19,014 nucleotides of DNA from a virus (taxonomy: Duplodnaviria > Heunggongvirae > Uroviricota > Caudoviricetes). The notes under the pieces were generated by a model. It made no database searches and had not been told where the DNA came from. It worked only from the letters and a program-made list of their open reading frames with translations. A program made the translations under genes and the position numbers. Positions 4,140 through 19,014 of the stretch are shown here, one piece after another. Numbering within the stretch: the first letter of the stretch is position 1; each line of letters begins with the position of its first letter. The stretch spans positions 1 to 19,014 of IMG/VR virus record IMGVR_UViG_2645727905_000013; one strand, written 5' to 3'.

Positions 4140-4142
4140 AAA

Positions 4143-4645: not shown

Positions 4646-4725
4646 GCTGTGTGGCGAAGTAACCACTCTTAACAGATTACAAGAATTTTTGCGGACCGCG
4701 TTAATGATTTTTAATCCCAAAGTCG

Positions 4726-4754
4726 TATTATTCGTTTTTTACTGTAGGAGTTAA
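4726..4754 (-). promoter_or_regulatory. Candidate sigma70 late promoter (pR'-like) reading toward the lysis genes
   Basis: Minus strand: TTAACT (-35), 17-nt spacer, ATAATA (-10). Located about 75-95 nt upstream of the hairpin terminator and about 250 nt upstream of the holin. Confidence 0.3.
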
Positions 4755-4759
4755 CAGGT
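4740..4759. promoter_or_regulatory. LexA (SOS) box-like motif TACTGT-N8-ACAG
   Basis: Sequence tACTGTaggagttaACAGgt has the conserved CTGT and ACAG arms at canonical 8-nt spacing, with an imperfect central region. It sits 10 nt upstream of the KAP NTPase ATG and overlaps the opposite-strand promoter candidate. Confidence 0.3.
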
Positions 4760-4766
4760 TTATATT

Positions 4767-5609
4767 ATGTTAGATACACTATCGTTCACTGAACGTGACG
4801 AGTTCCAACGAAGAAACATCGCTGAAAATATCATCAAGTTGCTAAAACCAGAGGCAGACATTTCACCACTGGTAATAGATGGCGCATGGGGAACAGGGAA
4901 ATCAGAATTTAGTATCAAACTGAAAAATCTCATTATTGAGCAAGAACCCGAATCTAAAGTTGTTTATATTGATGCCTTTAAAGGGGATCATGCAGAATCT
5001 CCATTACTTCTCATAACCTCTGCAATTGCCAGCATTTTGCCTGAGGAAGAAAAACAACACTTCATTAAGAGGTCTCTTCCTGCAATTCGATTTGGTTTAA
5101 AAACTGTACTAAAAGCTGGTGCAGGTTGGTTTTTACGACAGGAGGCTAGTGAAGTTGCCGAAGAATTCCAAGATGCGATGAAGAAAGCAAGCAATGCAGC
5201 AATAGATGGGACTATTGAAAGTTTGCTTGAAGACCATATGGAATCAGAGAAAAACATAAATTCACTTAAATCTTGCATCGAAAGTATTTCAGAAAATCAA
5301 AAGATAGTAATTATAATTGATGAATTAGATCGATGTAAGCCGAGTTTTTCAACAAATGTCATTGAAACAATAAAACACATTTTTGACATCAATAATGTCT
5401 TTTTTATTTTAGTTACAAACACAGAACAATTAAGAGCATCGATAAATCATATTTATGGTTATAGTATTAACTCACAAAAGTATCTTGACAAGTTTATAAA
5501 ATATACCATCACGCTTCCAGATACATGTTTGATAAATGGTCACGACGTATGTAAAGCCTCTGTTATATATTGGAATTACCTTGTAGAAAAAAACAAGATC
5601 ATTAAATGA
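4767..5609 (+). CDS. KAP-family P-loop NTPase, N-terminal part (Walker A and B present); gene appears frameshifted
   Basis: Walker A VIDGAWGTGKSEF (GxWGxGKS type) and Walker B IVIIIDELDRC (DELDRC) are the KAP NTPase signatures. AT-rich composition. Encoded on the opposite strand between Q and the lysis genes. Confidence 0.7.
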   Translation: MLDTLSFTERDEFQRRNIAENIIKLLKPEADISPLVIDGAWGTGKSEFSIKLKNLIIEQEPESKVVYIDAFKGDHAESPLLLITSAIASILPEEEKQHFIKRSLPAIRFGLKTVLKAGAGWFLRQEASEVAEEFQDAMKKASNAAIDGTIESLLEDHMESEKNINSLKSCIESISENQKIVIIIDELDRCKPSFSTNVIETIKHIFDINNVFFILVTNTEQLRASINHIYGYSINSQKYLDKFIKYTITLPDTCLINGHDVCKASVIYWNYLVEKNKIIK

Positions 5610-5757
5610 AATCAATAGCTTATCAGGTTATTTTATCCGTGATTTAATTCAACGAACCAACTTATCATTACGTGAAACACAAACATTTTCACGCAATCTT
5701 AACATTTTTCAACTGTTAAACGACAATGAAGACAACAGTAGTGATCGTTTTATAAAT

Positions 5758-6099
5758 ATGATCTTTGTCGTAGCTGTCTTCATACATTGCTTTGGTGACA
5801 AGGAAAAACTAAAACACGAAATTACCGCTGAATCTATATCTTATTTAGCAGACCTGCTTAAAATAAAAGAGATACCTTATTCTTATGAGATGAGTTCGAA
5901 AATCCCTAAAATATCAATTGTATTCTTTGGAATAATTAAAGACAGTATTACTCTTAATGAGCGATTTGCTCCTAAAAGTGATGAAGAACTAAAAAGATTC
6001 ACCAAAGTTTATACTGATTATGACCACCTAAATTTTTGGAGTACTACACCCAGAGAGTTATTGATAAAATATATCAATCAAATGTCATTCATTCAGTAA
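5758..6099 (+). CDS. Probable C-terminal continuation of the KAP NTPase gene in the +1 frame
   Basis: This frame is open from 5587 (just after a TAG at 5584-5586) through 6099, overlapping the end of the upstream ORF. Deleting one A from the A7 run (5587-5593) fuses the two ORFs into about 443 aa. The first ATG is only at 5758. Confidence 0.4.
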   Translation: MIFVVAVFIHCFGDKEKLKHEITAESISYLADLLKIKEIPYSYEMSSKIPKISIVFFGIIKDSITLNERFAPKSDEELKRFTKVYTDYDHLNFWSTTPRELLIKYINQMSFIQ

Positions 6100-6101
6100 A
6101 T

Positions 6102-6126
6102 AATACGCCCCTGCATGGGGCGTATT
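6102..6126. terminator. Bidirectional intrinsic terminator between convergent KAP moron and Q gene
   Basis: Perfect 10-bp stem aatacgcccc/ggggcgtatt with a 5-nt loop, flanked by T-rich tracts on both strands (tttattaaa on plus; ttattta on minus). Confidence 0.55.
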
Positions 6127-6129
6127 TTA

Positions 6130-6495
6130 TTAAACGTCCAAATCTAATGTTAGATCTAGCATGGAAAGGCAGCCATCAATAAATCCTTCGGCTAACTGTA
6201 TTTCTATACGTATCAATTTCTCATCCTTTCCACGCGCCTTTGCAATCTTACGCTTGGATATTCTGTATAAATAATGTGCCACAAGAAGCGAATGCTCATA
6301 AGGTCTTTTTTGCTTTAGACGAGCAAGACAACCTTCAATAATTAATGCATCACTATCCGAACAAGCCAAGCGTTTCTTGCTGGTATAGGGAAGAAGTCCC
6401 TTAAACCCAGCAGCTATAGGTGAATAATCAACACCAGAGTTATCACTCGCAGCCCATGCTCCCCAACGTTCAAGTATCATCTGAATATCACGCAT
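6130..6495 (-). CDS. Late-gene antitermination protein Q (QuuD / phage 82 Q-like family)
   Basis: MRDIQMILERWGAWAA...IAAGFKGL closely matches the recalled N-terminus of E. coli DLP12 QuuD. Start placed at the ATG at 6493-6495, which has an AGAAAGG SD; the ORF-track start codon at 6508-6510 is TTG. Confidence 0.75.
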   Translation of the reverse strand: MRDIQMILERWGAWAASDNSGVDYSPIAAGFKGLLPYTSKKRLACSDSDALIIEGCLARLKQKRPYEHSLLVAHYLYRISKRKIAKARGKDEKLIRIEIQLAEGFIDGCLSMLDLTLDLDV

Positions 6496-6512
6496 CACCT
6501 TTCTCCACAAAA

Positions 6513-7508
6513 TCAGGCCAGTACGCCAATTGCCAGCGCACGATCGATAAAACGAAATATCAGCTCCAGCTGAGAGCCATACTTCTCTTCAAATGCCACG
6601 GTATCCGCATGCAGCTCGTCGTGATGCTTTCTGCACAAAGGCAACACAAAGAGGTCATGCGCTTTTGTACCCATTCCACCCTGACCGTGGCCTATCAGAT
6701 GGTGGGGATCATCAGCAGGCTTTCCACAACATGCACACGGCTGTGTCTTAACCCAGCGCGTGTACTTTTCATTAACCCAGCGGCGGCTTTTTGGGCGTAA
6801 CATAAAAGACTCCGGCGACTCCGGATCCACTTTCAGCGCCAGCACCTTTTTCGCTTTATCCAGGATGATGCTGGTGGCAGGAACCGAAGGCACAAGGTCA
6901 CTTTCCCGGGTGACAGACGGCACAACAGGTTTCGGTAATCTCAGCGCCTTACGGGCTACGCTTTCAGGTAAGGCATCCGCCAGGTCATTACGAATCAGCC
7001 ACCAGCACAGTTCCGGCATTGTCACGGCATGGTTATCATCAAAATCGAGATCCCGACGGACTACAGACAACACCCAACGGGCACAGTTATCCGTTGCCAT
7101 TGATTCCAGCCGCTCCGTGAACTGATCACGTAACTGATTATCGCAGTGCCAGCACAGACGGATTGCGCCCGGCGCGTGTCGCATTGTGGTCATGTTCTCG
7201 CTGTGCCAGTCGGAATGAGGCCACTGGCAGCCTTTTTCACGAAGTAACCAGCTTTCAAGACATTCCACCCCACCAGCACGACGAATCACTGCCTCATTAC
7301 GGAACACGGCCCGAACGGCAGGATCATCCGCCAGCGGTTGTGATGCCGCCGGAACGGCACCACTGGCGAAAGATGAATAACGTTCCGGCTCAGGCTCCAG
7401 CAGGACACGCCCCTGCATAAACAGGGGCATCAGCTCTGAACCTGGCCTGAACAATACGATCCCCATACGCGGGGCAATTTCAGGGGTCAGTAGCGCTCTC
7501 ACGGTCAC
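6513..7508 (-). CDS. DUF968-like phage protein with C-terminal HNH/zinc-finger-like motif (YdfU-like)
   Basis: C-terminus CACCGKPADDPHHLIGHGQGG...CRKHHDELH has an HNH-type Cys/His pattern. It sits immediately upstream of Q, as ydfU does relative to quuQ in the Qin prophage (recalled). Confidence 0.5.
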   Translation of the reverse strand: MTVRALLTPEIAPRMGIVLFRPGSELMPLFMQGRVLLEPEPERYSSFASGAVPAASQPLADDPAVRAVFRNEAVIRRAGGVECLESWLLREKGCQWPHSDWHSENMTTMRHAPGAIRLCWHCDNQLRDQFTERLESMATDNCARWVLSVVRRDLDFDDNHAVTMPELCWWLIRNDLADALPESVARKALRLPKPVVPSVTRESDLVPSVPATSIILDKAKKVLALKVDPESPESFMLRPKSRRWVNEKYTRWVKTQPCACCGKPADDPHHLIGHGQGGMGTKAHDLFVLPLCRKHHDELHADTVAFEEKYGSQLELIFRFIDRALAIGVLA

Positions 7509-7509
7509 C

Positions 7510-8319
7510 TCAATGAACGGTATCGAGCAGCTTTAACAGCTCAGGGAATCGGGATTCGAAGAAATGCGGCTGCGTCTCGCGCGGATTTGCGGGACTGGTG
7601 ATGTTCTTGCCGAACATGCAGCCTTTCGCCGTCAGCGACCAGAATTTTTTGATGTTGTTAATCGCAGTGCGGCTGTATCGTTCACGTTGTTCAACGATCC
7701 CCAGCTTCGCCATCTGGTGATATGCCTGATTAGCTGTCAGGCGGATACCATACTGCTTCAGCAGTGCACTCAGTGACAGCGTGGGGCGGCTTGAGCCATC
7801 AGGCGCGTCAGCAGGAGCATCAATGGCATAGCGCGGTGCCAGATTCGGTAAGCCAACAGCCTCCTGGAGTTTCTGACAGGCACCAAGCACTGAAGAGTTA
7901 GACAGGTTTAACTCCCGGCGCATAAAGTCCAGCAGGATCACGCCAGCCTGCATCTTGTCAGCAGCCTGTCCGGATAATTTTTCCGGTGCGCTGGTTACCA
8001 TATCGAAAGTACGGATCACCTTCAGATGGAATGACGGGCTGATCCACATTGCATAGGCATACACCAGTTCCTTGCAGACATATGTTCCCCGTTCATTTCC
8101 CCCATGAATCACACTCACCGGGTCAACACCCAAATTCTGGGTGTTGGTCAATTCATGAACAAGCTCAACAGTTTGTTGGCTGGAAAGAAACTTTCCCGGC
8201 TCCTTGGTTCTGGCATTTGCACCAGATGCTACTGCTGCGCGATGCAGATCGTTCAGGCTGTAACGCCCATAAGCATCACGACGAACTTCAATACCATCAA
8301 TGACCATCAGATTATTCAT
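7510..8319 (-). CDS. KilA-N domain protein (antirepressor-like)
   Basis: N-terminal MVIDGIEVRRDAYGRYSLNDLHRAA... is typical of the KilA-N domain. Start placed at the ATG at 8317-8319, which has a GAGGAG SD about 8 nt upstream. Confidence 0.65.
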   Translation of the reverse strand: MNNLMVIDGIEVRRDAYGRYSLNDLHRAAVASGANARTKEPGKFLSSQQTVELVHELTNTQNLGVDPVSVIHGGNERGTYVCKELVYAYAMWISPSFHLKVIRTFDMVTSAPEKLSGQAADKMQAGVILLDFMRRELNLSNSSVLGACQKLQEAVGLPNLAPRYAIDAPADAPDGSSRPTLSLSALLKQYGIRLTANQAYHQMAKLGIVEQRERYSRTAINNIKKFWSLTAKGCMFGKNITSPANPRETQPHFFESRFPELLKLLDTVH

Positions 8320-8338
8320 ACTTCGTTTCTCCTCTTGA

Positions 8339-8728
8339 TCAGGCGGCTGCACCCGCCGTTTTCTCGTACTTACTGATAGTGATCTCGACCTTCCCTTCCG
8401 GGATAACCGGTCCCCACTCCACCAGCATTCTTTTCACCTGACTGTCGTCTTCCCACACACCCGCGTGGGTCAGGGCGTCAAACAGCGCCTTGTTATAGTT
8501 GTCCAGATCGCGGATCCGGTTATCCGGAGGAAACAACACGATCTCCACTGAAGCAGGTGCCGACGTTGGTTTTGGCAGACGACGTAACTGCTCAACTATT
8601 GCTGCACACGCTGCGCTCTGGAATTTGCGCCCCGCCGCGCTTATCAGGCTCTTACCTGCAAACGCCCCTTTGTTGGGGTGTCGCCAGTACGTGTTCACGC
8701 TGGGCGGGAAAGGCAGGATCAGCTTCAT
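8339..8728 (-). CDS. rusA: Holliday junction resolvase RusA
   Basis: 129 aa; ...PPSVNTYWRHPNKG...RDLDNYNKALFDALTHAGVWEDDSQV... parallels E. coli RusA (PPSNNRYYRH...[27 protein letters not shown]). Its ATG overlaps the stop of the upstream gene. Confidence 0.8.
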   Translation of the reverse strand: MKLILPFPPSVNTYWRHPNKGAFAGKSLISAAGRKFQSAACAAIVEQLRRLPKPTSAPASVEIVLFPPDNRIRDLDNYNKALFDALTHAGVWEDDSQVKRMLVEWGPVIPEGKVEITISKYEKTAGAAA

Positions 8729-9051
8729 ACTTTCAGGCCCCTCTCATGTAACCAGTGGGCTGCACGCAGCCTGGCGTTTTCCTCACCGGCAAGCAGTGAG
8801 CGGATAATCCCGACCGCCTCGCTGTCGTCGTCCTTCACCGCGGTATGAAGCGTTATCCCCCGGGCCACGCCACGCTTTATCGTGATGACGCCTTTTTTCT
8901 CCAGCGCACGAAGATGCTCCACCGCTGCATTCACCGAACGGTATCCCAGCATGGTTGCCACCTCCTGATTGGTTGGTGGGAAGCCACGTTCTTTCTGATA
9001 AGAAATCAGCATATCCAGCACCTGCTGCTGGCATTGAGTTAACGTCGTCAT
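8725..9051 (-). CDS. LexA N-terminal DNA-binding-domain-only protein (no S24 peptidase domain)
   Basis: MTTLTQCQQQVLDMLISYQKERGFPPTNQEVATMLGYRSVNAAVEHLRALEKKGVITIKRGVARGITL aligns with the LexA N-terminus ([68 protein letters not shown]). It retains an AGE linker motif but ends about 25 aa later. Start (ATG at 9049-9051) overlaps the upstream stop (TAATG). Confidence 0.65.
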   Translation of the reverse strand: MTTLTQCQQQVLDMLISYQKERGFPPTNQEVATMLGYRSVNAAVEHLRALEKKGVITIKRGVARGITLHTAVKDDDSEAVGIIRSLLAGEENARLRAAHWLHERGLKV

Positions 9052-9545
9052 TAAGCCCCCACGTAATTCCCTGACAGATACCACTCTTCACCCGATGCAG
9101 CGCGCTTGCTGCTTTTCCGTAAGCACCGCTCACGACGCGCCAGAAAATTGTTTCGTTCTGGCTGGGAGTGGCTTTCACGGAATGCCGCCATCCACACGGT
9201 TGCAGCACGACGAAATAAGCCCCTGGACTCCAGTTCTTCCGCCTGGCGGGCCAGGCACAAAATCACCCGCGGGTCGTTAGTGCCGACATAGAAATTGCGC
9301 ACAGGTCTGGTTTCACGAACTGGTTGCCGTTCCGCCTCCGGAGATATCTTTGTCTGGCGCGGGAAATGTCTGCGTGTATCCCCTTCACAACGGTGAGCCA
9401 CACGCCCACTCTGACGTAACTTGCTTGCTGACTGCAGAACGCGCTGCCGTGAGTAACCTGCAAAAGCATCAGCAATGTCTCCGGAAGTACCCCCTGGATG
9501 GGCTTCAATGAATTTCTGAACTTCATTCAAAAGACTCATAATCAC
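9051..9545 (-). CDS. Hypothetical regulator; C-terminal region PerC/ANR-like
   Basis: 164-aa ORF whose ATG overlaps the stop of the replication gene (ATGA). C-terminal ARQAEELESRGLFRRAATVWMAAF...RRERCL resembles the recalled PerC/Pch motif GLWRRAAxRW. The N-terminal half may be a winged helix. Confidence 0.4.
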   Translation of the reverse strand: MIMSLLNEVQKFIEAHPGGTSGDIADAFAGYSRQRVLQSASKLRQSGRVAHRCEGDTRRHFPRQTKISPEAERQPVRETRPVRNFYVGTNDPRVILCLARQAEELESRGLFRRAATVWMAAFRESHSQPERNNFLARRERCLRKSSKRAASGEEWYLSGNYVGA

Positions 9546-10483
9546 CCCCTGAATCCTGCCGGGATCTGGCTGTAGTCCACATTGTCGTAACTGGCTTTGA
9601 AGTACGGGTCTTCACGTTTTTCTGTGTGCGTGCTGACGGACGGCGATAAGCGCAGGGAAAGCTCATCCCATTTTTCCCGCAACTTCGACGGGCTGAGCAC
9701 GTTACGGCACCAGAACGGATCGCGGCTGACGCGGCTGTACATCTCGCAGATTTGTTTGTGAGTACGACCATCCTGCACACACATCAGGCGAATTTCGTTT
9801 GCCCAGGCTGTCCAGTTCGGTTCTTTGGGACGAATCACCTCGCCGTCACATTCGGCGGCCTGCTCGTACAGGGCGATGATTTTTTTCCAGAGCCACTGTG
9901 CGCAGGTCAAATCATCCTGCGTTCCCCACTGACGCTTTTTAGGGCTGAATACAACCGCATCAGGATGGCGAGTTAAAAAATCCTGTTCATCCGTCTGCGT
10001 GTCCGGTTGCGAAGCGTCCGGACGAGAAGTTTTTTTATCTGACGGATCATGTTTTGATTTTACTGACGGATCCCCGCCAGATTCTGACGGGTGAAAACCC
10101 GCTTTTTTGCCAGATTTCGACGCATCAAATTTTGACGGGTCAGATTTTGATGCGTCAGATTTTGACGGGTCAGAATCTGACAGTTGAGAAAATGCCGCTG
10201 CCTGAAGCTTCGCAACGTTAAGCTGATAAACATTCGACGCATTGCGGTTACCCTGGCGACGCGCCTTACGCGTTAACCAGCCTTCTGCTTCCAGCCGTGC
10301 GATAGCCGTTCTGACGGTACTCATCCCCGCGCCAATCTGGCGGGCAATGGTTTCAATTGATGGCCAGCACACACCTTCGTCATTACTGAAATCAGCCAGG
10401 CGGGCCATAATTGCCACGCTGGATAACTTCATGCCTGATGCAGCGCAACCATCCCATACATAGCCGGTTAATTTAGTACTCAT
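9542..10483 (-). CDS. Phage replication initiation protein (lambda O-like role), N-terminal wHTH, internal repeat linker
   Basis: N-terminal wHTH-like segment SIETIARQIGAGMSTVRTAIARLEAEGWL. A repetitive linker (SDSDPSKSDASKSDPSKFDASKSG) is encoded by tandem 15-bp DNA repeats. Located downstream of cro and the cII-position genes. Confidence 0.6.
   Translation of the reverse strand: MSTKLTGYVWDGCAASGMKLSSVAIMARLADFSNDEGVCWPSIETIARQIGAGMSTVRTAIARLEAEGWLTRKARRQGNRNASNVYQLNVAKLQAAAFSQLSDSDPSKSDASKSDPSKFDASKSGKKAGFHPSESGGDPSVKSKHDPSDKKTSRPDASQPDTQTDEQDFLTRHPDAVVFSPKKRQWGTQDDLTCAQWLWKKIIALYEQAAECDGEVIRPKEPNWTAWANEIRLMCVQDGRTHKQICEMYSRVSRDPFWCRNVLSPSKLREKWDELSLRLSPSVSTHTEKREDPYFKASYDNVDYSQIPAGFRG
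10038..10185. repeat. Iteron-like tandem direct repeats (candidate replication origin) inside the replication initiator gene
   Basis: Four or more tandem 15-bp units (caaattttgacgggt, cagattttgatgcgt, cagattttgacgggt, cagaatctgacagtt) plus degenerate upstream copies, with an adjacent T-rich tract (agtttttttatc, 10029-10040). Confidence 0.55.
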
Positions 10484-10652
10484 GACCGACCTCTATTTCC
10501 CTGAATTTACGACGAAACTGTTCGAGCGGACTGAAGCATTCATGCTCATAACCTTCGCGGAGGTAGATAACCCGTTGTGTTTCCGGCTCCCAACGAATGA
10601 CTCTGACGGGCACTCCGTAGTGATCTTTGAACCAGCGGTTAACTTGTCGCAA
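10473..10652 (-). CDS. Small ORF (59 aa, TTG start) overlapping the 3' end of ORF 10493..10831; alternatively the displaced C-terminus of that gene
   Basis: AAGGAG SD 8 nt upstream of TTG; translation [59 protein letters not shown] is protein-like. Its stop overlaps the start region of the replication gene. Below the 60-aa ORF-track cutoff. Confidence 0.3.
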
Positions 10653-10831
10653 AGGACTGTCTCCTTCTGCCGGTTGAAATCACCCACAGCCCACTCTGCA
10701 AAGCTGTGGGTTACAATTTCCCTGTCACCTGGTACATTCACTGCATAGCAATATTCCACCTTCGCTTTTCCACCCGGTACAGGAAGCGCAATCAGTTGCG
10801 AGCGACGGTAGTGTGTTGTTAAACTGTTCAT
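10493..10831 (-). CDS. Hypothetical protein (C-terminal third looks non-protein-like; possible frameshift)
   Basis: ATG overlaps the stop of the upstream gene (ATGA at 10828-10831), which supports the start. A second frame with a strong SD carries protein-like sequence over its 3' part. Confidence 0.35.
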
Positions 10832-11442
10832 GCGTTAGTTTCTCCACAACCAGAAGCAATCGACGCCACGACGCCCGGAGCTGCACACTCGCGGGCGTCA
10901 TTACTTTCTGAAATGCAAAAAATTTTGTAGACAAGTGCTGCATGCTCCTGCAGCTTCGAAATTGAGAGATACAGCTCGTCGTTAATTGCTGTCTTCTCAT
11001 GCGGTTCCACTACACCGTCTTCAATTGCTGAACGAATCTGTTTTGAATAACTGCCGATCTGTTCAATGACTTCCAGCAGGCGCTGGTTAATATCGGCGTT
11101 GTCCACATCCTCGACGTCAGGAAGAGACACAAAGACGCCATTTGCAGACTGCGCCACAGCGTCAGCAATGAAGTGAGTTCCACCAGCACGTTGCAAAATC
11201 ATTGCCCATCCCAGCGGGAAAATCTGATCGCCATCTGCACGAAGGCGGTTAAATAATGCGTTCTCTGTTACATCCAGCCAGTCAGCTGCTTCAGCGTAAC
11301 CACCCGGCAACGCTGCGATAGTTTTTCTGACAGCTTTCACGTACCACTCAGGCTGTTTTTCTACTTTCCAGTGATGCTTACCCACGGTTAGCCTCATCGT
11401 TCTGTGGTTTCTGTTAATCGATTTATCCATTAGATTTTTCAT
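10828..11442 (-). CDS. Hypothetical early protein in the cII/YdaT position downstream of cro
   Basis: Long ORF directly following cro. Start uncertain: ATGs at 11440-11442 and 11428-11430 overlap or abut the cro stop; the ORF-track start at 11499 would overlap cro by 77 nt. Function not recognised. Confidence 0.4.
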
Positions 11443-11623
11443 AAAGCTCAGGTTTAAATGGCAACCGTCCGCAAGTTCTATATGCAGCTTCTGCTGCACG
11501 TCCTTTTGGAATTAACTGGCCCGGACGGTTTCGCCACTGATAAACGGCTTCAGTTGTTATGCCGAAAAAAGCAGCAACTTTCTCAATACTGCCGAAGTAG
11601 CTTTCGATATCGTCAGTTGTCAT
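11423..11623 (-). CDS. cro: Cro-like HTH regulator
   Basis: 66-aa HTH protein (GITTEAVYQWRNR) transcribed divergently from the CI-like repressor, with a GGAGGG SD upstream. Confidence 0.7.
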   Translation of the reverse strand: MTTDDIESYFGSIEKVAAFFGITTEAVYQWRNRPGQLIPKGRAAEAAYRTCGRLPFKPELYEKSNG

Positions 11624-11720
11624 ACGCCCTCCAAACTAAGTTTTATTAGATGCTAATTACAAATCTATCTTTGGTCAACAAAAACTAAGATTACTTAGTA
11701 ATTAAAGAAATGGTGCTCCT
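11624..11720. promoter_or_regulatory. cI-cro intergenic operator/promoter region (OR-like)
   Basis: 97-bp AT-rich divergent intergenic region containing the palindrome ACTAAGattaCTTAGT (11684-11699) and a further ACTAAG copy (11635-11640). A possible minus-strand promoter is TTGACC, 17 nt, TAGCAT. Confidence 0.5.
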
Positions 11721-12347
11721 ATGGAAACGGTTGGTCAGCGTATAAAAGCTCTGAGAAGAGTAACCAGAACGTCCCAGAAAGAATTGGGTAAATTTTGTGG
11801 AGTAAGCGACGTTGCTGTGGGGTACTGGGAGAAAGACATCAATACCCCTGGTGGGGAGGCACTTTCGAAATTAGCGAAGTTCTTCAATACGTCAATAGAT
11901 TACATTCTTTATGGTGCTGAGTTTGAAGGCAAACTCGTCACAAACATGCGCAGAGTTCCTGTAATATCGTGGGTTCAGGCTGGGCAGTTTACTGAGTGCA
12001 GGGCAGCAGAAGTGTTTAGTGAAGTGGACAAGTGGGTAGATACATCATTAAAGATTGGTGATAACTCATTTGCATTAGAGGTTAAAGGTGACTCCATGAC
12101 TAACCCTAATGGCCTCCCAACAATACCAGAAGGCGCAACAGTGATTGTAGATCCAGATGCAGAACCTCGTCATGGAAAAATAGTCATCGCTCGACTTGAT
12201 GGAACAAACGAAGCTACAGTAAAAAAATTAGTCATCGATGGCCCTCAAAAGTTTTTAGTGCCATTAAATCCTCGGTATCCCAACATCCCTATCAATGGTA
12301 ATTGCCTTATCATTGGTGTAGTCAAAGGAGTTCAATACGAACTCTAA
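11721..12347 (+). CDS. cI: CI-like prophage repressor (HTH-XRE N-domain plus S24 LexA-type autopeptidase C-domain)
   Basis: N-terminal HTH (QKELGKFCGVSDVAVGYWEKD), a putative Ala-Gly cleavage site (VQAGQF), catalytic Ser in GDSM and Lys in TVKKL. Confidence 0.85.
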   Translation: METVGQRIKALRRVTRTSQKELGKFCGVSDVAVGYWEKDINTPGGEALSKLAKFFNTSIDYILYGAEFEGKLVTNMRRVPVISWVQAGQFTECRAAEVFSEVDKWVDTSLKIGDNSFALEVKGDSMTNPNGLPTIPEGATVIVDPDAEPRHGKIVIARLDGTNEATVKKLVIDGPQKFLVPLNPRYPNIPINGNCLIIGVVKGVQYEL

Positions 12348-12357
12348 GACCTCTCTT

Positions 12358-12430
12358 TTCTAACTAAGGCACCGAACTAAGAAAAGTTTGGTGTTTTCTC
12401 TTGCCATAATAACTAAGTTAAGTTAGATTT
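12358..12430 (+). promoter_or_regulatory. Candidate OL/pL-like region downstream of cI (repeated ACTAAG motifs; possible promoter)
   Basis: ACTAAG at 12363-12368, 12377-12382 and 12413-12418, the same hexamer as in the cI-cro operators. Possible promoter TTGCCA (12401-12406), 17 nt, TAGATT (12424-12429). Confidence 0.25.
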
Positions 12431-12534
12431 TATGTCAAAGATAACGAACAGGCAGGACGCGCACGAAGTAGCCCGCCCGGTACGTACGAAGACCGGGATG
12501 ATTCGTTAGCGGATGATTTCAGTGGAGAGAATAG

Positions 12535-12843
12535 ATGAATGAGCAGGATTTGAAGCATGTGATCGCATTGTTGCTGGAAGACGCTAAACGTTTGCAGCAG
12601 ATAGAGCCAAATGCAGGCACTGAGGCCCGTATTTTGTTAGCAAAACAGGCATTAAAGACTTGCGGGGCGCAAGACCCTGATCGAACCAAGTTCATGAATT
12701 TCATGGCTAACACGATCACCCCACTGCCATGCAATGGAGAGAGGGTTAGCCGTGTTTATCACGACACAATGGTTAAGGCATTAAGAATCGAGCTTGATGG
12801 GCTTAGGCGTAAGATCGTGATGAACAAAATCGTTGCCAACTAA
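12535..12843 (+). CDS. Hypothetical immunity-region protein
   Basis: 102-aa ORF with a GGAGAG SD at appropriate spacing; first gene downstream of cI. No family recognised. Confidence 0.4.
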   Translation: MNEQDLKHVIALLLEDAKRLQQIEPNAGTEARILLAKQALKTCGAQDPDRTKFMNFMANTITPLPCNGERVSRVYHDTMVKALRIELDGLRRKIVMNKIVAN

Positions 12844-13122
12844 GGAAGCAGACGGAAGTAAGCATGCGCTTTGTTCAAATTTGCAGACAAATATATTTGC
12901 GTCAACACCAGCACTGTTAGCAATGGAAAAAGTTTGATCAAGGATTTGTTGGCAGTTCATTGTGCTTTTGAGGATATATCCCTCTGGAATCAGTCTGCAG
13001 CAGCTATCGTCAGACTCTTTGATTGTTTTCTGGTACAGAAAGTTAAGCATTAATTCTTCAAATTTTTTGGTCTGTTCGGCTGTTGCTTCAAACAGACGAA
13101 CGTGAACATAAAACTGGTTCAT
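12781..13122 (-). CDS. Hypothetical protein encoded antisense to the early-left operon (immunity-region moron candidate)
   Basis: ORF with an AGGAAA SD 5 nt upstream of the ATG at 13120-13122 (protein MNQFYVHVRLFEATAEQ...). Relatively AT-rich. Convergent with 12535..12843, overlapping it by 63 nt. Confidence 0.35.
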   Translation of the reverse strand: MNQFYVHVRLFEATAEQTKKFEELMLNFLYQKTIKESDDSCCRLIPEGYILKSTMNCQQILDQTFSIANSAGVDANIFVCKFEQSACLLPSASLVGNDFVHHDLTPKPIKLDS

Positions 13123-13401
13123 TAGATTTCCTTGCTGGCTGTGTGAGAACTCCAGCATACCACCGAGCCTGAAGTGGTGAAAAGACAGGCAATAGTTTCA
13201 TTGCTGTGTGTAGTCTTGGCGGTACCAGCTTGTACCCTTGCTTCCGGCTGGTACCGTCCTTTTTACAAAACAGAGAAGAGTATCACCGGACGACGGGCTC
13301 ATAACCCAATCCATCCGGGCGGCTGCCACCGCAGGTGTTCTTCTCTGTTTTGTGGAGAAACCAACCGACCTTGCAGGGTCGATATGATGAGGAGCAGCAA
13401 A

Positions 13402-13764
13402 ATGGCTAGCGAACGCAGTACTGATGTGCAGGCATTTATCGGGGAGCTGGACGGCGGCATATTTGAAACCAAAATCGGCGCTGTTCTCAGTGAAGTCGCT
13501 TCCGGTGTGATGAACACAAAAACCAAAGGGAAAGTCTCACTCAACCTGGAAATCGAACCATTTGATGAGAACCGTGTGAAAATCAAACACAAACTCTCAT
13601 ATGTTCGCCCGACTAACCGCGGGAAAATTTCCGAAGAAGACACCACCGAAACGCCGATGTATGTCAATCGCGGTGGTCGCCTGACTATTCTGCAGGAAGA
13701 CCAGGGACAATTACTGACTCTTGCCGGTGAACCTGACGGAAAACTCCGCGCAGCAGGTCGTTAA
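13402..13764 (+). CDS. Hypothetical phage protein (possibly YfdP-like)
   Basis: Strong GAGGAG SD 8 nt upstream of the ATG at 13402. The ORF-track N-terminal extension from 13174 is Cys/Arg-rich and implausible. Confidence 0.45.
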   Translation: MASERSTDVQAFIGELDGGIFETKIGAVLSEVASGVMNTKTKGKVSLNLEIEPFDENRVKIKHKLSYVRPTNRGKISEEDTTETPMYVNRGGRLTILQEDQGQLLTLAGEPDGKLRAAGR

Positions 13765-13829
13765 TATCGTTTTTAATAAACTGATTATTTATCTCATCAC
13801 TGAATATCTTTATATAGTGAGGACTTATT

Positions 13830-14654
13830 ATGTCTCAGAACTTAGACGCAACCGCAATTAATCAAATCCATGCCCTTATTTCTGCTCAGGGTGTTAATGA
13901 AATTATCAGTAAGATTGGTGCCGATGCTGTGGCATTGCCTGAGAATTTCCGCATTCATGATCTGGAAAAATTTAATTTAAATCGCTTCCGTTTCCGAGGT
14001 GCGCTTTCCACTGCAAGCATCGATGACTTTACCCGTTATTCTAAAGATCTTGCAGATGAAGGCACCCGCTGCTTTATCGATGCTGATAATATGCGTGCCA
14101 TCAGTGTGCTTAACCTGGGCACTATTGATGAACCAGGTCACGCAGATAACACCGCCACTCTCAAACTGAAAAAGGCAGCACCGTTCTCTGCTCTGTTGTC
14201 TGTTAACGGCGAGCGTAACTCCCAGAAGTCACTGGCAGAATGGATTGAAGACTGGGCCGACTACCTTGTGGGCTTTGATGCTAATGGTGACGCTATTCAG
14301 GCAACAAAAGCGGCTGCGGCTGTCCGTAAAATCACGATTGAAGCAAACCAGACCGCTGATTTTGAAGATAATGACTTCAGCGGCAAACGCTCCCTGATGG
14401 AGTCTGTCGAAGCGAAGACCAAAGATATTATGCCAGTGGCATTTGAATTTAAATGCGTTCCGTTTGAAGGTCTGAAAGAACGTCCGTTTAAATTACGTCT
14501 CAGCATTATCACTGGCGATCGTCCTGTACTGGTTCTGCGCATTATTCAGCTGGAAGCAGTGCAGGAAGAAATGGCTAACGAATTTCGTGATCTGCTTGTT
14601 GAGAAATTCAAAGACAGCAAAGTAGAAACCTTTATTGGTACTTTCACCGCCTGA
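13830..14654 (+). CDS. Hypothetical phage protein, 274 aa (YfdQ-like by size and context)
   Basis: Well-formed ORF with a GAGGA SD. Size and position next to an HD-domain gene match the yfdQ-yfdR arrangement recalled from the E. coli CPS-53 prophage. Confidence 0.5.
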
Positions 14655-14666
14655 TTTCATTACTGC

Positions 14667-14688
14667 AAATGCCCCTGCGGGGGCATTT
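14667..14688 (+). terminator. Strong hairpin (possible partial terminator) between the 274-aa gene and the HD-domain gene
   Basis: Perfect 9-bp stem aaatgcccc/ggggcattt with loop tgcg; the downstream T-tract is short (ttt). Confidence 0.3.
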
Positions 14689-14782
14689 ATGGAGACGTAA
14701 TTAACTCAATAATCGCCGGATGGTAAGGGCTTCTTTTTACCAAAATTCAGTGCGGTGCAGCGCAAATAACGTGGAGAACAAA

Positions 14783-15331
14783 ATGTCATTTATTAAAACT
14801 TTTTCCGGGAAGCATTTTTATTATGACAAGATAAATAAAGACGACATCGTGATTAACGATATCGCGGTTTCCCTTTCAAATATCTGTCGCTTTGCAGGAC
14901 ATCTTTCACACTTCTACAGTGTCGCCCAGCATGCGGTGCTTTGCAGCCAGCTGGTGCCACAGGAATTTGCTTTTGAAGCATTAATGCATGATGCAACAGA
15001 AGCTTATTGCCAGGACATCCCCGCTCCACTGAAACACCTTCTTCCTGACTATAAACGGATGGAAGAAAAAATAGATGCCGTAATCCGTGAGAAATACGGG
15101 TTACCCCCGGTTATGAGCACGCCCGTGAAATATGCCGATCTCATCATGCTGGCAACCGAACGCCGCGATCTCGGGCTTGATGATGGCTCTTTCTGGCCTG
15201 TACTGGAAGGCATCCCGGCAACAGAGATGTTCAACGTGATTCCACTGGCACCGGGCCATGCCTACGGGATGTTTATGGAACGCTTTAAAGAGCTACATAA
15301 GATACATAAACAATCCAGACAGCGAAATTAA
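14783..15331 (+). CDS. HD-domain phosphohydrolase (YfdR-like 5'-deoxynucleotidase family)
   Basis: His...HD pattern (RFAGH, AQHAV, LMHDATEAY). Start placed at the ATG at 14783 with a GGAGAA SD; about 182 aa. Confidence 0.65.
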   Translation: MSFIKTFSGKHFYYDKINKDDIVINDIAVSLSNICRFAGHLSHFYSVAQHAVLCSQLVPQEFAFEALMHDATEAYCQDIPAPLKHLLPDYKRMEEKIDAVIREKYGLPPVMSTPVKYADLIMLATERRDLGLDDGSFWPVLEGIPATEMFNVIPLAPGHAYGMFMERFKELHKIHKQSRQRN

Positions 15332-15359
15332 CTAGTGAAATAGTTTTGTAGCAAAAGAA

Positions 15360-15620
15360 ATGAGGTTATCAAAAATGCTTCAAATGCTGACACTTGAGGA
15401 ATGGGCTACGGAAAAATACAGAAGTAATCCTCCAAGTGTGTCCACATTGCGTCGTTATGCTAAGCAGAATTTATTTTGTCCACCGGCAATGAAACAAGGT
15501 CGACTATGGCGAGTGCGTGAGGACGCAGAGTTAGTTGGGGAATTAGTTACTCCTGTCATCAAGAAAAGTGATTCTATTATTCTACAAAGGATTTTAAGTA
15601 ATGGCAGCCAGACCACGTAA
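15360..15620 (+). CDS. xis: Excisionase (lambda Xis-like)
   Basis: LTLEEWATEKYRSNPPSVSTLRRYAKQNLFCPPAMKQGRLWRV parallels lambda Xis (YLTLQEWNARQRRPRSLETVRRWVRECRIFPPPVKDGREYLF). Overlaps the integrase start by 20 nt. Start may be the internal ATG at 15375 or 15384. Confidence 0.7.
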   Translation: MRLSKMLQMLTLEEWATEKYRSNPPSVSTLRRYAKQNLFCPPAMKQGRLWRVREDAELVGELVTPVIKKSDSIILQRILSNGSQTT

Positions 15621-16728
15621 AAATAATGTTTCAGTCCCGAACTTGTATCCGCTCTATAGCAGAAAAGTAAATAAAGTCTATTGGCGATATAAGCATCCAG
15701 TGACCGGGAAGTTTCATTCTTTGGGCACAAACGAAGCTGAAGCCATTGCTATTGCCACTGAGGCCAATACACGCCTGGCTGAGCAAAGAACCCGGCAGAT
15801 TCTGGCTATCAGTGACAGGATCGCAACCAGCAAAGGAAAAGCGATAACAACATCAACATGGTTAGACCGCTACCAGGCCATCCAGGATGACAGGCTGAAA
15901 AGTGGTGATATAAGACTCAACACCTATAAGCAGAAAGCCAAACCAGTATCCTTGCTCAGGGAACGAGCAGGAATGAAATTGATTTCAGCTGTTGATGTCA
16001 GGGATATAGCACAATTGCTTGACGAGTATATCGCTGCCGGGCAACCGAGAATGGCCCAAGTTGTAAGGTCTGTATTGATTGATGTGTTTAAGGAAGCACA
16101 GCACTATGGCGAAGTTCCGCCAGGGTATAACCCTGCTCTTGCGACGAAGCAACCCAGAAGGAAAATTACCCGTCAACGCCTCAGCCTGGAAGAATGGCAA
16201 AAAATCTTTGATATCGCAGATGCCAGTCATCGTTATATGGGAAATGCCATGCTGTTAGCACTGGTTACTGGCCAGCGGTTAGGTGATATTTCGCGTATGA
16301 AATTTAGCGATATTTGGGATGATCATCTTCACGTCATTCAGGAAAAGACCGGGAGCAAAATCGCCATCCCGCTTTCTCTTCGCCTCAATGCGATTAACTG
16401 GAGTTTACGCGATGTAGTATCCCGCTGCCGTGACTATGCAGTCAGCCCATACCTTGTACATTTTTTCCGTACGACTTCACAGGCTGAACGTGGCGCACAG
16501 GTTAAATCCAATACATTGACGATGAATTTCAGTAAAGCGAGGGATTTTGCAGGAATTGACTGGGGTGATGGCTCACCCGCAACATTCCATGAACAAAGGT
16601 CTTTATCTGAACGTCTGTACAAAGAACAGGGGTTAGACACACAAAAACTACTTGGTCATAAAACGCAACAACAAACCGATCGTTATCATGACGATCGCGG
16701 CAAAGGATGGAGCAAAGTTGCGTTGTGA
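15601..16728 (+). CDS. int: Tyrosine site-specific integrase, lambda Int family
   Basis: 375 aa. N-terminal arm-binding region (VPNLYPLYSRK...HPVTGKFHSLG) and C-terminal catalytic region (TFHEQRSLSERLYKEQ...LLGHKTQQQTDRYHDDRG) parallel lambda Int (PPNLYIRNNG..., TFHELRSLSARLYEKQ...LLGHKSDTMASQYRDDRG). Confidence 0.9.
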   Translation: MAARPRKNNVSVPNLYPLYSRKVNKVYWRYKHPVTGKFHSLGTNEAEAIAIATEANTRLAEQRTRQILAISDRIATSKGKAITTSTWLDRYQAIQDDRLKSGDIRLNTYKQKAKPVSLLRERAGMKLISAVDVRDIAQLLDEYIAAGQPRMAQVVRSVLIDVFKEAQHYGEVPPGYNPALATKQPRRKITRQRLSLEEWQKIFDIADASHRYMGNAMLLALVTGQRLGDISRMKFSDIWDDHLHVIQEKTGSKIAIPLSLRLNAINWSLRDVVSRCRDYAVSPYLVHFFRTTSQAERGAQVKSNTLTMNFSKARDFAGIDWGDGSPATFHEQRSLSERLYKEQGLDTQKLLGHKTQQQTDRYHDDRGKGWSKVAL

Positions 16729-16976
16729 AAATTTAAGCGTCCCAACGCCACCTTGAACTTCTCACCACACATGAAAAAGAACCAAACTGTTCGCTTTGAG
16801 CGAAAGGCGGACGTCATGAGACGCGTATAACATATATTGTAAATATAAGGTTCGATTATTTGCTTTCTTAACGTAAAATAAGTATGGAATGGTCTTGCTT
16901 ACGTAAGGTCTTTTAAGTTATATCTAGTAGTTATGATTTTAAATAGGTCTTTCGTGCTAATAAATAAGGTGGTTGC
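16729..16976. other. Probable attachment-site / prophage boundary region (core not identified)
   Basis: Non-coding AT-rich segment immediately downstream of int with a marked compositional shift. Contains ttacgtaa-type palindromes (16870-16910). Confidence 0.3.
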
Positions 16977-17897
16977 ATGTTACATAAAAAAACAACACAA
17001 GAAAATGTAGCTTTTGGACTTGCTGTACTTAACTACTATCTTCGTTTCAATTCTAAAGCGAATTTACAGGACGCTAATGTAAGTTCAGAGGAGTTGATAA
17101 GTAATTTAGTAAATATTCTGAATGATAGTGATTTTATCTGCACATCGGAAATCTCAGCAAATTATCCAGGAATAGATGCTATCGATAAAGTAAATAGACT
17201 CGGGCTCCAGATAACACATACAAAAACCAATTCAAAAATTAATAAAACAATAGATAGAATTCGCGAAAATAAAGTTAACAATGAAATTGGTGTGCTATAT
17301 TTTTTCATTACATCAAGAAAGCAGAAGAAATACACTATCACAGCACAATGCCCAAATCTAAACGTCACAACAAATAACATATTGGACTTTGATTCCCTAG
17401 CTGAACTGCTTTCGAAAAATCAGAATAAACTGGCTCAAGCAGAAGCAGAACTTATTAAAGCAATGCCTCGTCTCTACCAAGATGGAAAAGCACGACATGA
17501 GGCTATGCTTAATAGTATTCTTGTGGCCAGAAATGAATTAGATAGAAGAGTATTCACTGCTGATAAAATTTTAGAAGAACCAGAGGAAATGCTTTTATCC
17601 CTCAGGGAAATGAGAATAGCCATACAAAAAGCAGGAATAATGAATGAAGCTAATTCTGTTGTATCTACTTCATTTAAAAAAATAATTAAAATTATTAATG
17701 ATGCAGAGGGTCAAATTGCAAAAAAACATACCAGTGGATATAAAAAATATAAGGCCAGAATATTTCCCTCGTGGGATTATACTGATAGAGATGATTGTTT
17801 AAATATTTTAATGGGGATAAGAAAAGATGTTTTAGACCAAATAGATATTATTGACATTGAGATCAATAAACTGAAAGGGTTTCTTGGAATACGGTAA
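16977..17897 (+). CDS. Hypothetical protein with SMEK-like N-terminal domain and helical C-terminal half (candidate defence-associated)
   Basis: 306-aa AT-rich ORF. N-terminal region (...SANYPGIDAIDKVNRLGLQITHTKTNSKINKTIDRI...GVLYFFITS) resembles, from memory, the SMEK-type domain pattern (AIDLGD...IAFQVTS). C-terminal half is predicted helical/coiled-coil. SD AAGGTGG upstream. Confidence 0.45.
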   Translation: MLHKKTTQENVAFGLAVLNYYLRFNSKANLQDANVSSEELISNLVNILNDSDFICTSEISANYPGIDAIDKVNRLGLQITHTKTNSKINKTIDRIRENKVNNEIGVLYFFITSRKQKKYTITAQCPNLNVTTNNILDFDSLAELLSKNQNKLAQAEAELIKAMPRLYQDGKARHEAMLNSILVARNELDRRVFTADKILEEPEEMLLSLREMRIAIQKAGIMNEANSVVSTSFKKIIKIINDAEGQIAKKHTSGYKKYKARIFPSWDYTDRDDCLNILMGIRKDVLDQIDIIDIEINKLKGFLGIR

Positions 17898-18330
17898 CAT
17901 TTAAATTTATCAATACGTTATTCGCAATCTATTAATATGAAATAAGGTACAATTGGCGGGCATGACAAATGTCCGCTTCTGGCACGGAGCAGACCCAAGC
18001 AAGGCCATTAGGTCTGGTGTGAGCGAAGAACAGACGTTACAGTGGAGTTAGAATCTGATTGGTTTTCACAATACATCTAAGTGCATTGAGATAAGAAATG
18101 AATTACATCCGGTCAAACCCCAATCGACGCTTTATGGAAAGTATGGCAAAACGATGAAAACGTTCTGCCTTGTGCTGATTTATTTCATAAAACTGATGAG
18201 AAGCCCCATATATCTATATCTGGTGAAACTGGCTTCTAATTTCCCCCAAAAGCTTAATATTGAATTGAAGCCATTATTGAAATTGTCATATTTAAAGTAT
18301 ATTGAAGTTGATGCGAAAAAACAAACTTTT

Positions 18331-19014
18331 CTAAAAATCATTTGCCGATTGGATAGCGTTATATGGATTGATTGATGGGGTGCTGCCAGTCACTATTCCA
18401 ATTAAACTACCAATTACAAAAGGCTCTTTGTTATCAATTATAATATAGGGCCCGCCAGAGCATCCAGGATAGCTATTATGATTCACCATTAGACGAGATG
18501 TAATACACCCCCCATTTGAATGTTTAGTACAATTCTTATTGAAAGGTTGAGAAACTATACCTTGCATTTGATTAAGTTGAGACTTTCCTAAAGGAAACCC
18601 TAATCCGAAGGCAGCAGTTTTTTGTGTAATTGAGGTTTTTTTAAAGAAATTTGATATAGGATGGATATCATCTCTATTTAATACTAATTCTGCGCTATCT
18701 ACAAAAGGGTCAGGGTTGTTATAGTTATTTACATCATTACAGTCGTTGAGAATAAAATCGACTAAGATAGGCGTTGATTTTACTAGTCCGTGATGGTTTT
18801 CAAATTTGACGAATAATTGGACGGTATTATTAGTTGGATATATCCGGTTAAGAGCGTTAGTAACAACATGAGCTGCGGTAAGCATTTTCTTACACTCACC
18901 ATCGTCAAAACCAAATGCAGTGGCTTCGAATGGGTTTTGAAAATTAGAATGAGCACTTACATAGATTTTGCATACATAGTCATCAAAGTGAAAACTGCTA
19001 AAAAATTTTAGCAC
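18331..19014 (-). CDS. Trypsin-like (S1/chymotrypsin-fold) serine peptidase, N-terminus probably beyond window edge
   Basis: Catalytic triad motifs present: LTAAHVV (His), VDSAELVL (Asp), PGCSGGP (Ser). The ORF runs to the window end at 19014 with no ATG in frame. AT-rich. Confidence 0.6.
   Translation of the reverse strand: MLKFFSSFHFDDYVCKIYVSAHSNFQNPFEATAFGFDDGECKKMLTAAHVVTNALNRIYPTNNTVQLFVKFENHHGLVKSTPILVDFILNDCNDVNNYNNPDPFVDSAELVLNRDDIHPISNFFKKTSITQKTAAFGLGFPLGKSQLNQMQGIVSQPFNKNCTKHSNGGCITSRLMVNHNSYPGCSGGPYIIIDNKEPFVIGSLIGIVTGSTPSINPYNAIQSANDF

Follow-up and report, generated by a model that had tools for sequence, protein, structure and literature searches.

Putative defence-type gene cassettes bounded by an inverted motif in the int-icd cargo slot of an e14-type Escherichia coli prophage

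The window analysed here comprises the 19,014 nucleotides (nt) of the IMG/VR virus record IMGVR_UViG_2645727905_000013 and forms the right arm of a temperate phage of SfV/e14-like kind, whose terminal genes are xis (15360–15620) and a lambda-type integrase gene, int (15601–16728). The DNA that follows int is probably a cargo slot occupied by independent defence-type cassettes that are bounded by an inverted sequence motif. Within the window this slot contains an intact candidate gene for a 306-residue protein with an N-terminal SMEK domain and a helical C-terminal half, a trypsin-like protease gene that is probably disabled, and a junction at which what appears to be a conserved cassette-boundary repeat is exposed. 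That defence genes occupy prophage cargo slots is already established, and the hotspot and the domain families are known; the stand-alone SMEK architecture is uncharacterised, and we regard a boundary repeat common to several types of element as the most interesting lead.

The int-icd slot and its independent cassettes

The guanine-plus-cytosine (GC) content, taken in windows of 500 nt, is 0.45–0.48 up to about position 16500 and 0.32–0.37 from 16750 to the end of the window; by feature it is 0.483 for the prophage (1–16711), 0.32 for the SMEK coding sequence, 0.367 for the gap that follows it and 0.352 for the protease coding sequence. A preliminary description of this DNA had reported the abrupt change in composition just after the integrase, and this is borne out, the GC content falling from about 48% to 32–37%; it had also placed the segment beyond the integrase. 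The segment is not beyond the prophage: its place is between int and the attachment (att) core in icd. The integrase (15601–16728, plus strand; Arm-DNA-bind_1 and Phage_integrase domains) is a tyrosine integrase of the intE type, belonging to the e14 family, and is the last backbone gene before the slot. Its gene is 89–92% identical in nucleotide sequence to the annotated intE of 503 of 5,426 complete E. coli genomes, that of K-12 e14 included, and for this reason the element was assigned to the e14 type residing in icd. The exact SMEK protein is recorded in 48 blocks of the assembly collection, and in all eight E. coli assemblies that were examined the gene order is int (+), SMEK (+), protease (−), a gene for a 410-residue HD protein (−) and icd (−), followed by rluE, nudJ, mnmA, hflD, purB and phoPQ.

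Homology breaks against related prophages define a variable cargo segment that begins at 16712, runs through the window end at 19014 and extends to about window-equivalent position 21087 (14111 in L001, a locus that continues past the window). Homology with the related prophage 'vB_EcoM-689R6' ends at L001 9735 (window 16711) and restarts at L001 14112, 103 bp past the icd stop codon, and the interval in that prophage holds genes for a GmrSD_N protein and a 216-residue protein. In K-12 the interval is occupied by lit-ymfE-ymfD, and in other strains by a KAP/STAND-like ATPase, by an HNH protein with an AAA ATPase, by proteins of 156 and 1,040 residues, or by a methylase with an AAA ATPase, so that six different cargos occur there across strains. 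An intE-family integrase beside icd with strain-variable genes in between, the arrangement that marks an e14-type cargo slot, is therefore what was found. The left edge of homology between e14-type prophages lies at 16711 for 689R6, 16716 for STEC388 and 16812 for K-12; since these ends differ and some fall within the last int codons (16711–16728), the left edge of the variable region is not fixed. The C-termini of the integrases differ slightly among e14-type prophages.

In three assemblies (L003–L005) a second prophage lies within icd, about 160 bp from the icd stop codon and distal to the cargo, L003 departing from L001 at position 14378 inside icd. The att core must therefore lie beyond the three genes, which belong to the prophage, and sequence comparison places it about 160 bp from the icd stop. 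Accordingly, the prophage is identified as a lambdoid one of the e14 family (intE-type) in the 3′ end of icd, and the segment as its cargo slot, situated inside it between int and the att core. The tandem prophage (14378–20921 in L003, L004 and L005) carries tail-fibre and tail-fibre assembly genes and encodes a 1,571-residue protein without a Pfam match, and a 50-residue icd fragment is left between the two prophages.

The expectation that accessory DNA sits here at an integration hotspot was confirmed: a megablast search of the cargo segment against the 5,426 complete E. coli genomes returned zero matches, which makes this cargo rare and not part of the core genome, and the segment adjoins the att site inside icd. 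Other defence-type cargo was found in the same slot of related prophages, as the preliminary description had supposed for such hotspots. There were zero tRNA or Rfam matches in the segment at gathering thresholds, and raising the limit to E values of up to 5 gave two chance-level matches. Just upstream of xis and int, in the conserved backbone (14720–15331), lies yfdR, which encodes a homologue of the YfbR-like HD-family 5′-deoxynucleotidases; this is a nucleotide-metabolism gene adjoining a slot that here also holds a dGTPase gene.

The SMEK cassette (16793–17990, plus strand), one gene with its own flanks, was delimited by homology to Morganella and IncX-type plasmid loci. It is 90.5% identical in nucleotide sequence over 1,200 bp to a locus in a P2-like prophage of Morganella (L013 5815–7014) and 79.8% identical to the plasmid loci. 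The closest DNA relative of the protease cassette is different, L001 11056–12137 (from window position 18032 to past the window end) being 89.5% identical to an island of Serratia fonticola, and neither the Morganella nor the Serratia locus has the partner gene. Homology to the SMEK cassette ends at 17990 and that to the Serratia protease cassette begins at 18032, 42 bp apart, at a pair of motif copies. SMEK relatives in four other contexts all occur without the protease, and protease relatives in six contexts all occur without SMEK. These comparisons indicate that the two genes are not a pair, and that the slot contains three independent single-gene cassettes.

The boundary motif

A search for repeats revealed a 22-mer that is present in three direct copies, located at cassette junctions. 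The repeat has one core in two diverged versions, A (TGTGCCAGAAGCGGA) and B (TGAGCGAAAAGCGGA), each with TAAT...(G)GTCTG or AATCTGACAG in front of it in most cases, and as a whole the A/B motif is an imperfect inverted repeat of about 38 nt with the consensus AATCTGACAGTCyGCTyTG(T/A)GC(C/G)ArAAGCGGAC. The left end of the SMEK cassette carries a B-type copy, TGAGCGAAAGGCGGA (16797–16811, plus strand), and an equivalent B copy follows intE in K-12 (L033 7696–7710) and in strain PAR (L032 7696–7710). The right end carries an A-type copy, CGTGCCAGAAGCGGA (17972–17986, minus strand), matched at the same place in Morganella (L013 6996–7010). Back to back with the latter stands the B-type copy TGAGCGAAGAACAGA (18020–18034, plus strand), which marks the 3′-side end of the protease cassette, and two further A-type copies lie beyond the window on the minus strand of L001 (12117–12131 and 13977–13991). 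Taken together, the copies give an array that can be written int-[B SMEK A][B protease A][? dGTPase A]-icd. The 3′ flanks of the SMEK and protease genes meet in a non-coding junction (17898–18330; homology limits 17990 and 18032) of 433 bp, which agrees with the stretch of about 430 bp without a convincing open reading frame (ORF) noted in the preliminary description; it contains short non-conserved ORFs only and no Rfam match, and its GC-richer centre is best described as two cassette ends lying back to back.

Cassette homology to other genera stops at the motif cores. In K-12 e14 the lit gene is bracketed by a B copy (L033 7696–7710, plus strand) and an A copy (L033 8728–8742, minus strand), and the HNH-ATPase cargo of strain PAR is bracketed by the same pairing. 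The A copy and the lit start are about 120 nt apart, the motif being upstream, and the A copy of the protease cassettes has a similar upstream position. The present element resembles e14 in its integrase family (89% nucleotide identity), its icd site, its cargo position directly after int, and the presence of a protease in the slot. The cargo itself differs completely: Lit is a metallopeptidase whose trigger and target are known (the T4 Gol peptide and EF-Tu), whereas the protease of the window belongs to the PA clan, has lost its start signals and has an activity that is predicted.

In the loci under comparison there are 29 matches to the A core with up to three mismatches, against 5.75 in shuffled sequences. 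A 20-base A-arm pattern occurs in at least 120 IMG/VR contigs, mostly of 30–40 kb, and 38 of these contain an inward-facing motif pair 765–3,740 bp apart that always consists of one A and one B copy and encloses, over the 38 contigs, 23 unrelated cargo clusters. Across 24 contigs with different cargo, the consensus frequency is 0.84–0.93 outside and within the core and drops to 0.4–0.5 within about 5 nt inside the core on both sides. An 87-nt A arm is present in 2,653 of the 5,426 complete E. coli genomes, with a median of one copy and a maximum of five, and is intergenic among the matches listed. CP4-like islands contain copies too, one of which immediately precedes a reverse-transcriptase gene that carries a frameshift annotation. 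In the island of E. coli AVS0467 (L159, about 4500–8650), which carries Ag43 and is CP4-44-like, a core copy has on one side a gene for a YeeP-like GTPase and on the other one of 3.7 kb for an RNA-directed DNA polymerase, annotated as frameshifted, and so the motif also appears to flank cargo in integrative islands. Three P2-like IMG/VR contigs (L057, L118 and L141) have a 1,685-bp A/B interval encoding a 348-residue protein whose C-terminal part reads, by eye, as a trypsin-like domain (TARHV...GGNSGGP) and follows an additional N-terminal region; if so, motif-bounded cassettes would include another protease-type cargo, unrelated to the first.

The Z/fun hotspot of P2 and other Peduoviridae offers a close likeness. 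It likewise takes up single-gene or small cargo between the same A/B motif pair, and the P2-like prophages of Providencia and Morganella carry the gene for the 306-residue SMEK protein itself. The carrier in the window differs in being a lambdoid e14-type prophage with a three-cassette array in its slot. A 360-residue SMEK paralogue, which shares the N-domain alone and has an unrelated C-terminal region, occurs in Peduovirus vB_EcoM-12474III (L037 3318–4699) at the Z/fun position between FI and G, flanked by inverted repeats of about 40 nt (B on the left, A on the right), and this cargo recurs in five IMG/VR contigs. Integron attC arrays and Acinetobacter pdif modules likewise string together single-gene cassettes, with or without a promoter, and have imperfect palindromic sites of 60–70 bp between them. 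The junctions in the window differ from these in having, by inspection, neither RYYYAAC/GTTRRRY nor a dif-like consensus, and in consisting of inverted A/B copies; IntI was not found at the locus, where the sole integrase is the lambda-type intE.

A strong hairpin or terminator at the junction is not supported for the window copy, which has a z value of −0.2; two other copies fold well, and hairpin stability of the motif is not consistently above that of shuffled sequences. The motif corresponds to no Rfam family. By inspection the motif did not fit a sigma-54 promoter, a CRP site, REP/ERIC, dif/cer or attC sequences, and literature searches with the motif strings returned nothing relevant. 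It may resemble the 38-bp inverted repeats of the Tn3 family (TCTGAC...ACGTT). To go by its title, a paper by Nilsson et al. of 2004 (Mol Biol Evol 21:1) may have reported these repeats already. Candidate functions for the motif are homology handles for exchange, ends for a transposase or recombinase encoded elsewhere, and insulators. We put forward only tentatively the possibility that a so far undescribed cassette-exchange system uses it for recognition or crossover; such a system would move single defence genes among P2-like phages, e14-type prophages, and CP4-like and other enterobacterial islands.

The protease and SMEK proteins

The protease ORF as called occupies 18331–19014 on the minus strand and has 227 codons, of which 219 (18331–18990) are common with homologues. 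The product scores 21.2 bits against the Pfam Trypsin model (cut-off 20.6) and falls below the cut-off for Trypsin_2, and its AlphaFold2 (AF2) model, with a predicted local distance difference test score (pLDDT) of 87 and a predicted template modelling score (pTM) of 0.87, shows a chymotrypsin fold that matched Deg9, Deg2, Rv3671c and chymotrypsin at probability 1.0. The triad H49/D106/S186 (numbering of the 227-residue form; the serine lies in GCSGGP) is invariant in 25 homologues. By modelled fold and triad the protein is a PA-clan serine peptidase, in keeping with the convergent S1-type peptidase of the preliminary description. That description had the gene running off the window edge; however, the homologues are 214–220 residues long and their initiating Met aligns to codon 9 of the 227-codon ORF (18990–18988), so the whole enzyme lies inside the window. 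The homologues begin MFDDYVCKIYVS..., a start in which no hydrophobic segment was evident when read by eye. A secreted degradative protease was rejected on the grounds that there is no signal-peptide-like start and that the neighbours are mobile-element and defence genes; no degradative operon is evident.

In Serratia, Proteus, Vibrio and Pantoea the leader of the protease gene has a fixed order, with a TG-n-TAAAAT box, about 25 nt, a Shine-Dalgarno (SD) region TAAGGAA(A/G)TGAA and then ATG. An alignment of leaders from five genera shows that the 5′ end of the gene in the window (18985–19014, minus strand) is damaged: the E. coli copy lacks 32 bp (junction between 18988 and 18987), corresponding to TTTGCTAAGTATGTAACTAAGGAAATGAAATG in the Serratia fonticola homologue and holding the conserved SD sequence TAAGGAA and the ATG. 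The GTG called as the start codon (19014–19012) lies in the 5′ leader of the other genera and overlaps the conserved TGCTAAAAT box (19013–19005). If this box is an extended −10 promoter element, as it looks to be, native transcripts would not contain the GTG, and read-through from upstream is expected to be blocked by the terminator of the dGTPase gene. Because the 32-bp loss took both the SD sequence and the ATG, expression of the protease is probably weak or absent. Apart from this the ORF is intact, and the ratio of nonsynonymous to synonymous substitution rates (dN/dS) against Serratia is 0.26, so the deletion would be either recent or tolerated.

The strongest competing explanation, which we nevertheless think rather unlikely, is that the protease is a working single-gene abortive-infection protease, comparable to Lit in the e14 slot, and is translated from the upstream GTG. 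This would account for the intact ORF and catalytic triad with their dN/dS, and the GTG start was accepted by gene callers in eight assemblies. The closer relatives, moreover, form a solo clade (59–92% identity, with 92% amino-acid identity to a Serratia fonticola protein) that behaves as a self-contained cassette with a conserved leader, found in islands of Serratia, Proteus (by mutS) and Pantoea and in an integrative and conjugative element (ICE) of Vibrio, where the gene adjoins Mrr_cat and Gabija-like genes; these solo loci have no recurring neighbour. The domain also resembles the N-terminal effector of the protease-LmuA of Lamassu (PADLOC 4.7e-7; positions 9–168 of 425). Against a working enzyme stand the deletion of an SD sequence and an ATG that are invariant in four other genera, the position of the substitute GTG within a box downstream of which native transcripts would presumably start, and the blocking of upstream transcription by the dGTPase terminator. 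The Lamassu likeness is itself partial, as the protease has half the length of LmuA and no called gene at the locus has an SMC-family Pfam domain of the kind sought for LmuB/SMC.

The genes of more distant relatives, of about 50% identity, open an operon of three genes, in which a gene for a membrane protein (PADLOC BnzA, 2.6e-8, partial) and one for a 461-residue protein (BnzB, 3.3e-53) come next. This apparently unnamed operon, with a protease of 218 residues (L019 6001–8747; L022 4998–7747), occurs in a Klebsiella island and in 471 plasmid records, mostly of large conjugative plasmids, two of which were examined and typed as IncHI2, and it looks to be a variant of Bunzi with an associated protease. 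The preliminary description had expected any partner of the protease to lie beyond 19014. The partners of these relatives lie downstream, on the side on which SMEK lies here, and are not found at this locus: tblastn showed no trace of BnzA/B-like genes or remnants in the window, the gap included, or in L001. Scanning genome contigs with the protease alignment yielded no locus that could be confirmed. A small conserved ORF on the downstream side of the protease was likewise rejected, the 53-residue ORF that overlaps the stop codon being frameshifted in Serratia and unrelated in Vibrio and Proteus.

What does lie beyond the window is the third cassette, with the gene for the 410-residue HD/HD_assoc protein of dGTPase type (L001 12435–13667, minus strand, 400 bp past the window end). 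This protein is matched by PADLOC at 1.9e-110 and by TIGR01353 at 321.7 bits (cut-off 152). It resembles the anti-phage dGTPase family but is below the cut-off of the NCBIfam model 'antiphage_dGTPase' NF041026 (293.7 against 400), and its gene is outside the window; the anti-phage dGTPase of Tal et al. 2022 reportedly acts by dNTP depletion. Only two of the complete E. coli genomes have a relative of the gene, at 77.5% nucleotide identity. Its stop codon is followed by a hairpin terminator (L001 12292–12375), an inverted repeat with 40-nt arms, a GC-rich core and a T-run, and given this strong terminator the dGTPase and protease genes are terminated separately and the former is not an operon partner of the latter.

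The 306-residue SMEK protein (16977–17897, plus strand) is preceded by a good SD sequence, aaGGTGGttgcATG, and consists of a SMEK_N domain (residues 13–143; nt 17013–17405) and a helical bundle (about residues 147–303). The domain, named in the preliminary description, was verified by profile searches with Pfam SMEK_N (PF21941; E 2e-24, 86.5 bits against a cut-off of 27, residues 13–143) and NCBIfam NF033859 (E 1.5e-24, 85.6 bits against a cut-off of 30), and no housekeeping family was matched. PDB entry 26bh ('Mrr domain of Kordia jejudonensis Mrr-APAZ') matches the N-domain at E 5e-14. The two have in common the motif PxIDxxD..QITxT..K (nYPGIDaiD...RlGlQITHTk..sKI), of which P64, D67, D70, Q78 and K87 are invariant in 23 SMEK homologues. 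In the AF2 model (pLDDT 80.6) the C-terminal half is all-helical, as had been proposed. This half recovered 7 representative clusters among 1.84 billion proteins; of the five that were new, four were scanned and three of these have SMEK_N, and fold searches returned generic bundle matches only. As a protein query the N-domain alone retrieved 4 fragments only. Full-length homologues form 24 clusters at 90% identity, all of 303–307 residues and, where the source is named, all from Enterobacterales. From these comparisons the protein is classified as a stand-alone Mrr-type nuclease-domain protein with a family-specific helical bundle, most likely a self-contained nuclease effector that the bundle regulates or oligomerises, and this architecture may travel as cargo that serves exclusion or defence.

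Among the nuclease effector domains found in fusion with APAZ is SMEK, which serves as an effector nuclease in Argonaute defence systems (PMC10810196), and the SMEK-APAZ short Argonaute systems have been named SPARMA (bioRxiv 10.1101/2025.04.08.647717). The view of SMEK as a 'defence-island domain' thus stands in outline, the role documented in the papers searched being that of an Mrr-type nuclease effector of short-Argonaute partners. The present protein shares with SPARMA of Kordia jejudonensis the homologous nuclease domain and its conserved motif, and it matches the PADLOC model Aga_REase-PNTD1-PNTD2 at 9e-16 in the nuclease part only (positions 14–159 of 463). It differs in that it has no APAZ domain, its C-terminal half finding its own 7-cluster family only, and in that the locus has no Argonaute gene, the neighbours being int, the protease and the dGTPase. 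In its other contexts, too, no called gene has an Argonaute-family Pfam match. With neither APAZ nor an Argonaute gene, guide-dependent activation is excluded.

The other contexts of SMEK(306) are a plasmid island of Pantoea, where it is beside a HEPN-RES gene, a P2-like prophage of Providencia, between gpU and tail-fibre genes, a P2-like prophage of Morganella, after ogr and beside the host pyk, and about 60 conjugative plasmids of 33–85 kb (pMAS2027 being typed IncX1/X3). On the plasmids, which have genes for a type IV secretion system (T4SS), TopB, Hha and H-NS, it lies between topB and trbM. A second competing explanation, which we judge unlikely, is that the SMEK protein is not anti-phage: it would help its carrier element otherwise, for example in establishing a plasmid, in entry exclusion or in competition, or its gene would be a selfish nuclease gene or an addiction gene. 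The fixed, backbone-like place of the gene on these plasmids and the size of the plasmid form, a cluster of 689 members, would suit such a role, as would the confinement of defence-model matches to the nuclease domain. Set against this, the same protein is found at positions of defence cargo, in the lit slot of e14-type elements, in P2-like prophages and beside the HEPN-RES gene in Pantoea, and its paralogue is in the P2 Z/fun hotspot; the use of SMEK domains as Argonaute-system effectors argues in the same direction.

Weighing of the cargo-slot explanation and its significance

Several points weigh against a slot of independent defence-type cassettes. For the SMEK protein, PADLOC defence models gave no match beyond the nuclease domain, a literature search on the stand-alone SMEK-helical architecture found no paper, the predicted motif reads Q-I-T and not (D/E)-x-K, and the fixed topB/T4SS position on IncX-type plasmids could mean a role in plasmid biology and not in defence. 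The protease ORF is still intact at the dN/dS given above, and the GTG is preceded, at a distance of 8 nt, by a weak AGGG, so that some expression is possible. For the dGTPase cassette the B-type copy is at best degenerate, only the A side being clear.

It is very improbable that the segment, instead of being prophage cargo, is an island of the chromosome or a relic of some other element that lies between the prophage and icd. The abrupt drop in GC, the mosaic origin and the want of phage genes would fit such an origin, but e14-type elements that integrate into icd supply the 3′ end of that gene, and the cargo lies between int and the replaced end in every strain examined. In addition, the second prophage of L003–L005 inserts beyond the cargo, inside icd, and the C-terminus of icd here is slightly unlike the K-12 sequence. 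A two- or three-gene defence system of SMEK with the protease, or also with the dGTPase, is largely refuted and scarcely credible, for although SMEK and protease are adjacent in all eight assemblies with the prophage, the Vibrio ICE homologue lies directly downstream of the Mrr_cat nuclease gene and the Serratia island has a DUF4365 nuclease gene, the SMEK and protease genes are convergent, their relatives occur apart and in different organisms with homology blocks that end at the motif pair, the solo protease loci share no neighbour, and a terminator separates dGTPase from protease.

Under the favoured explanation of independent cassettes in a prophage cargo slot, the 306-residue protein would be a stand-alone Mrr/SMEK-type PD-(D/E)xK nuclease and its gene the sole intact one within the window. 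The C-terminal helical bundle would keep the nuclease inactive, or would mediate oligomerisation and sensing. The nuclease might then cut DNA when a competing phage infects the cell or when another mobile element enters it, and cutting would either exclude the invader or abort the infection, to the benefit of the carrier element.

The 1.2-kb one-gene SMEK-helical cassette, which is carried by IncX-type plasmids and by P2-like and e14-type prophages, offers a compact candidate for cloning. The protease suggests that a small leader deletion can disable what appears to be an intact 'defence protease', a kind of damage that annotation based on ORFs misses. The same inverted motif marks the limits of variable cargo, with a precision of a few bases, in unrelated mobile elements, and it does so around the classical lit gene as well. 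The mechanism of exchange at P2/P4 hotspots has been stated to be unknown, in an account that does not mention repeats (Rousset et al. 2022, PMC9122126), and a defined boundary sequence makes that mechanism directly testable. Should the motif prove to belong to a cassette-exchange system, the fast turnover of such hotspots would be explained mechanistically, and the window would represent a three-cassette array made by that system.

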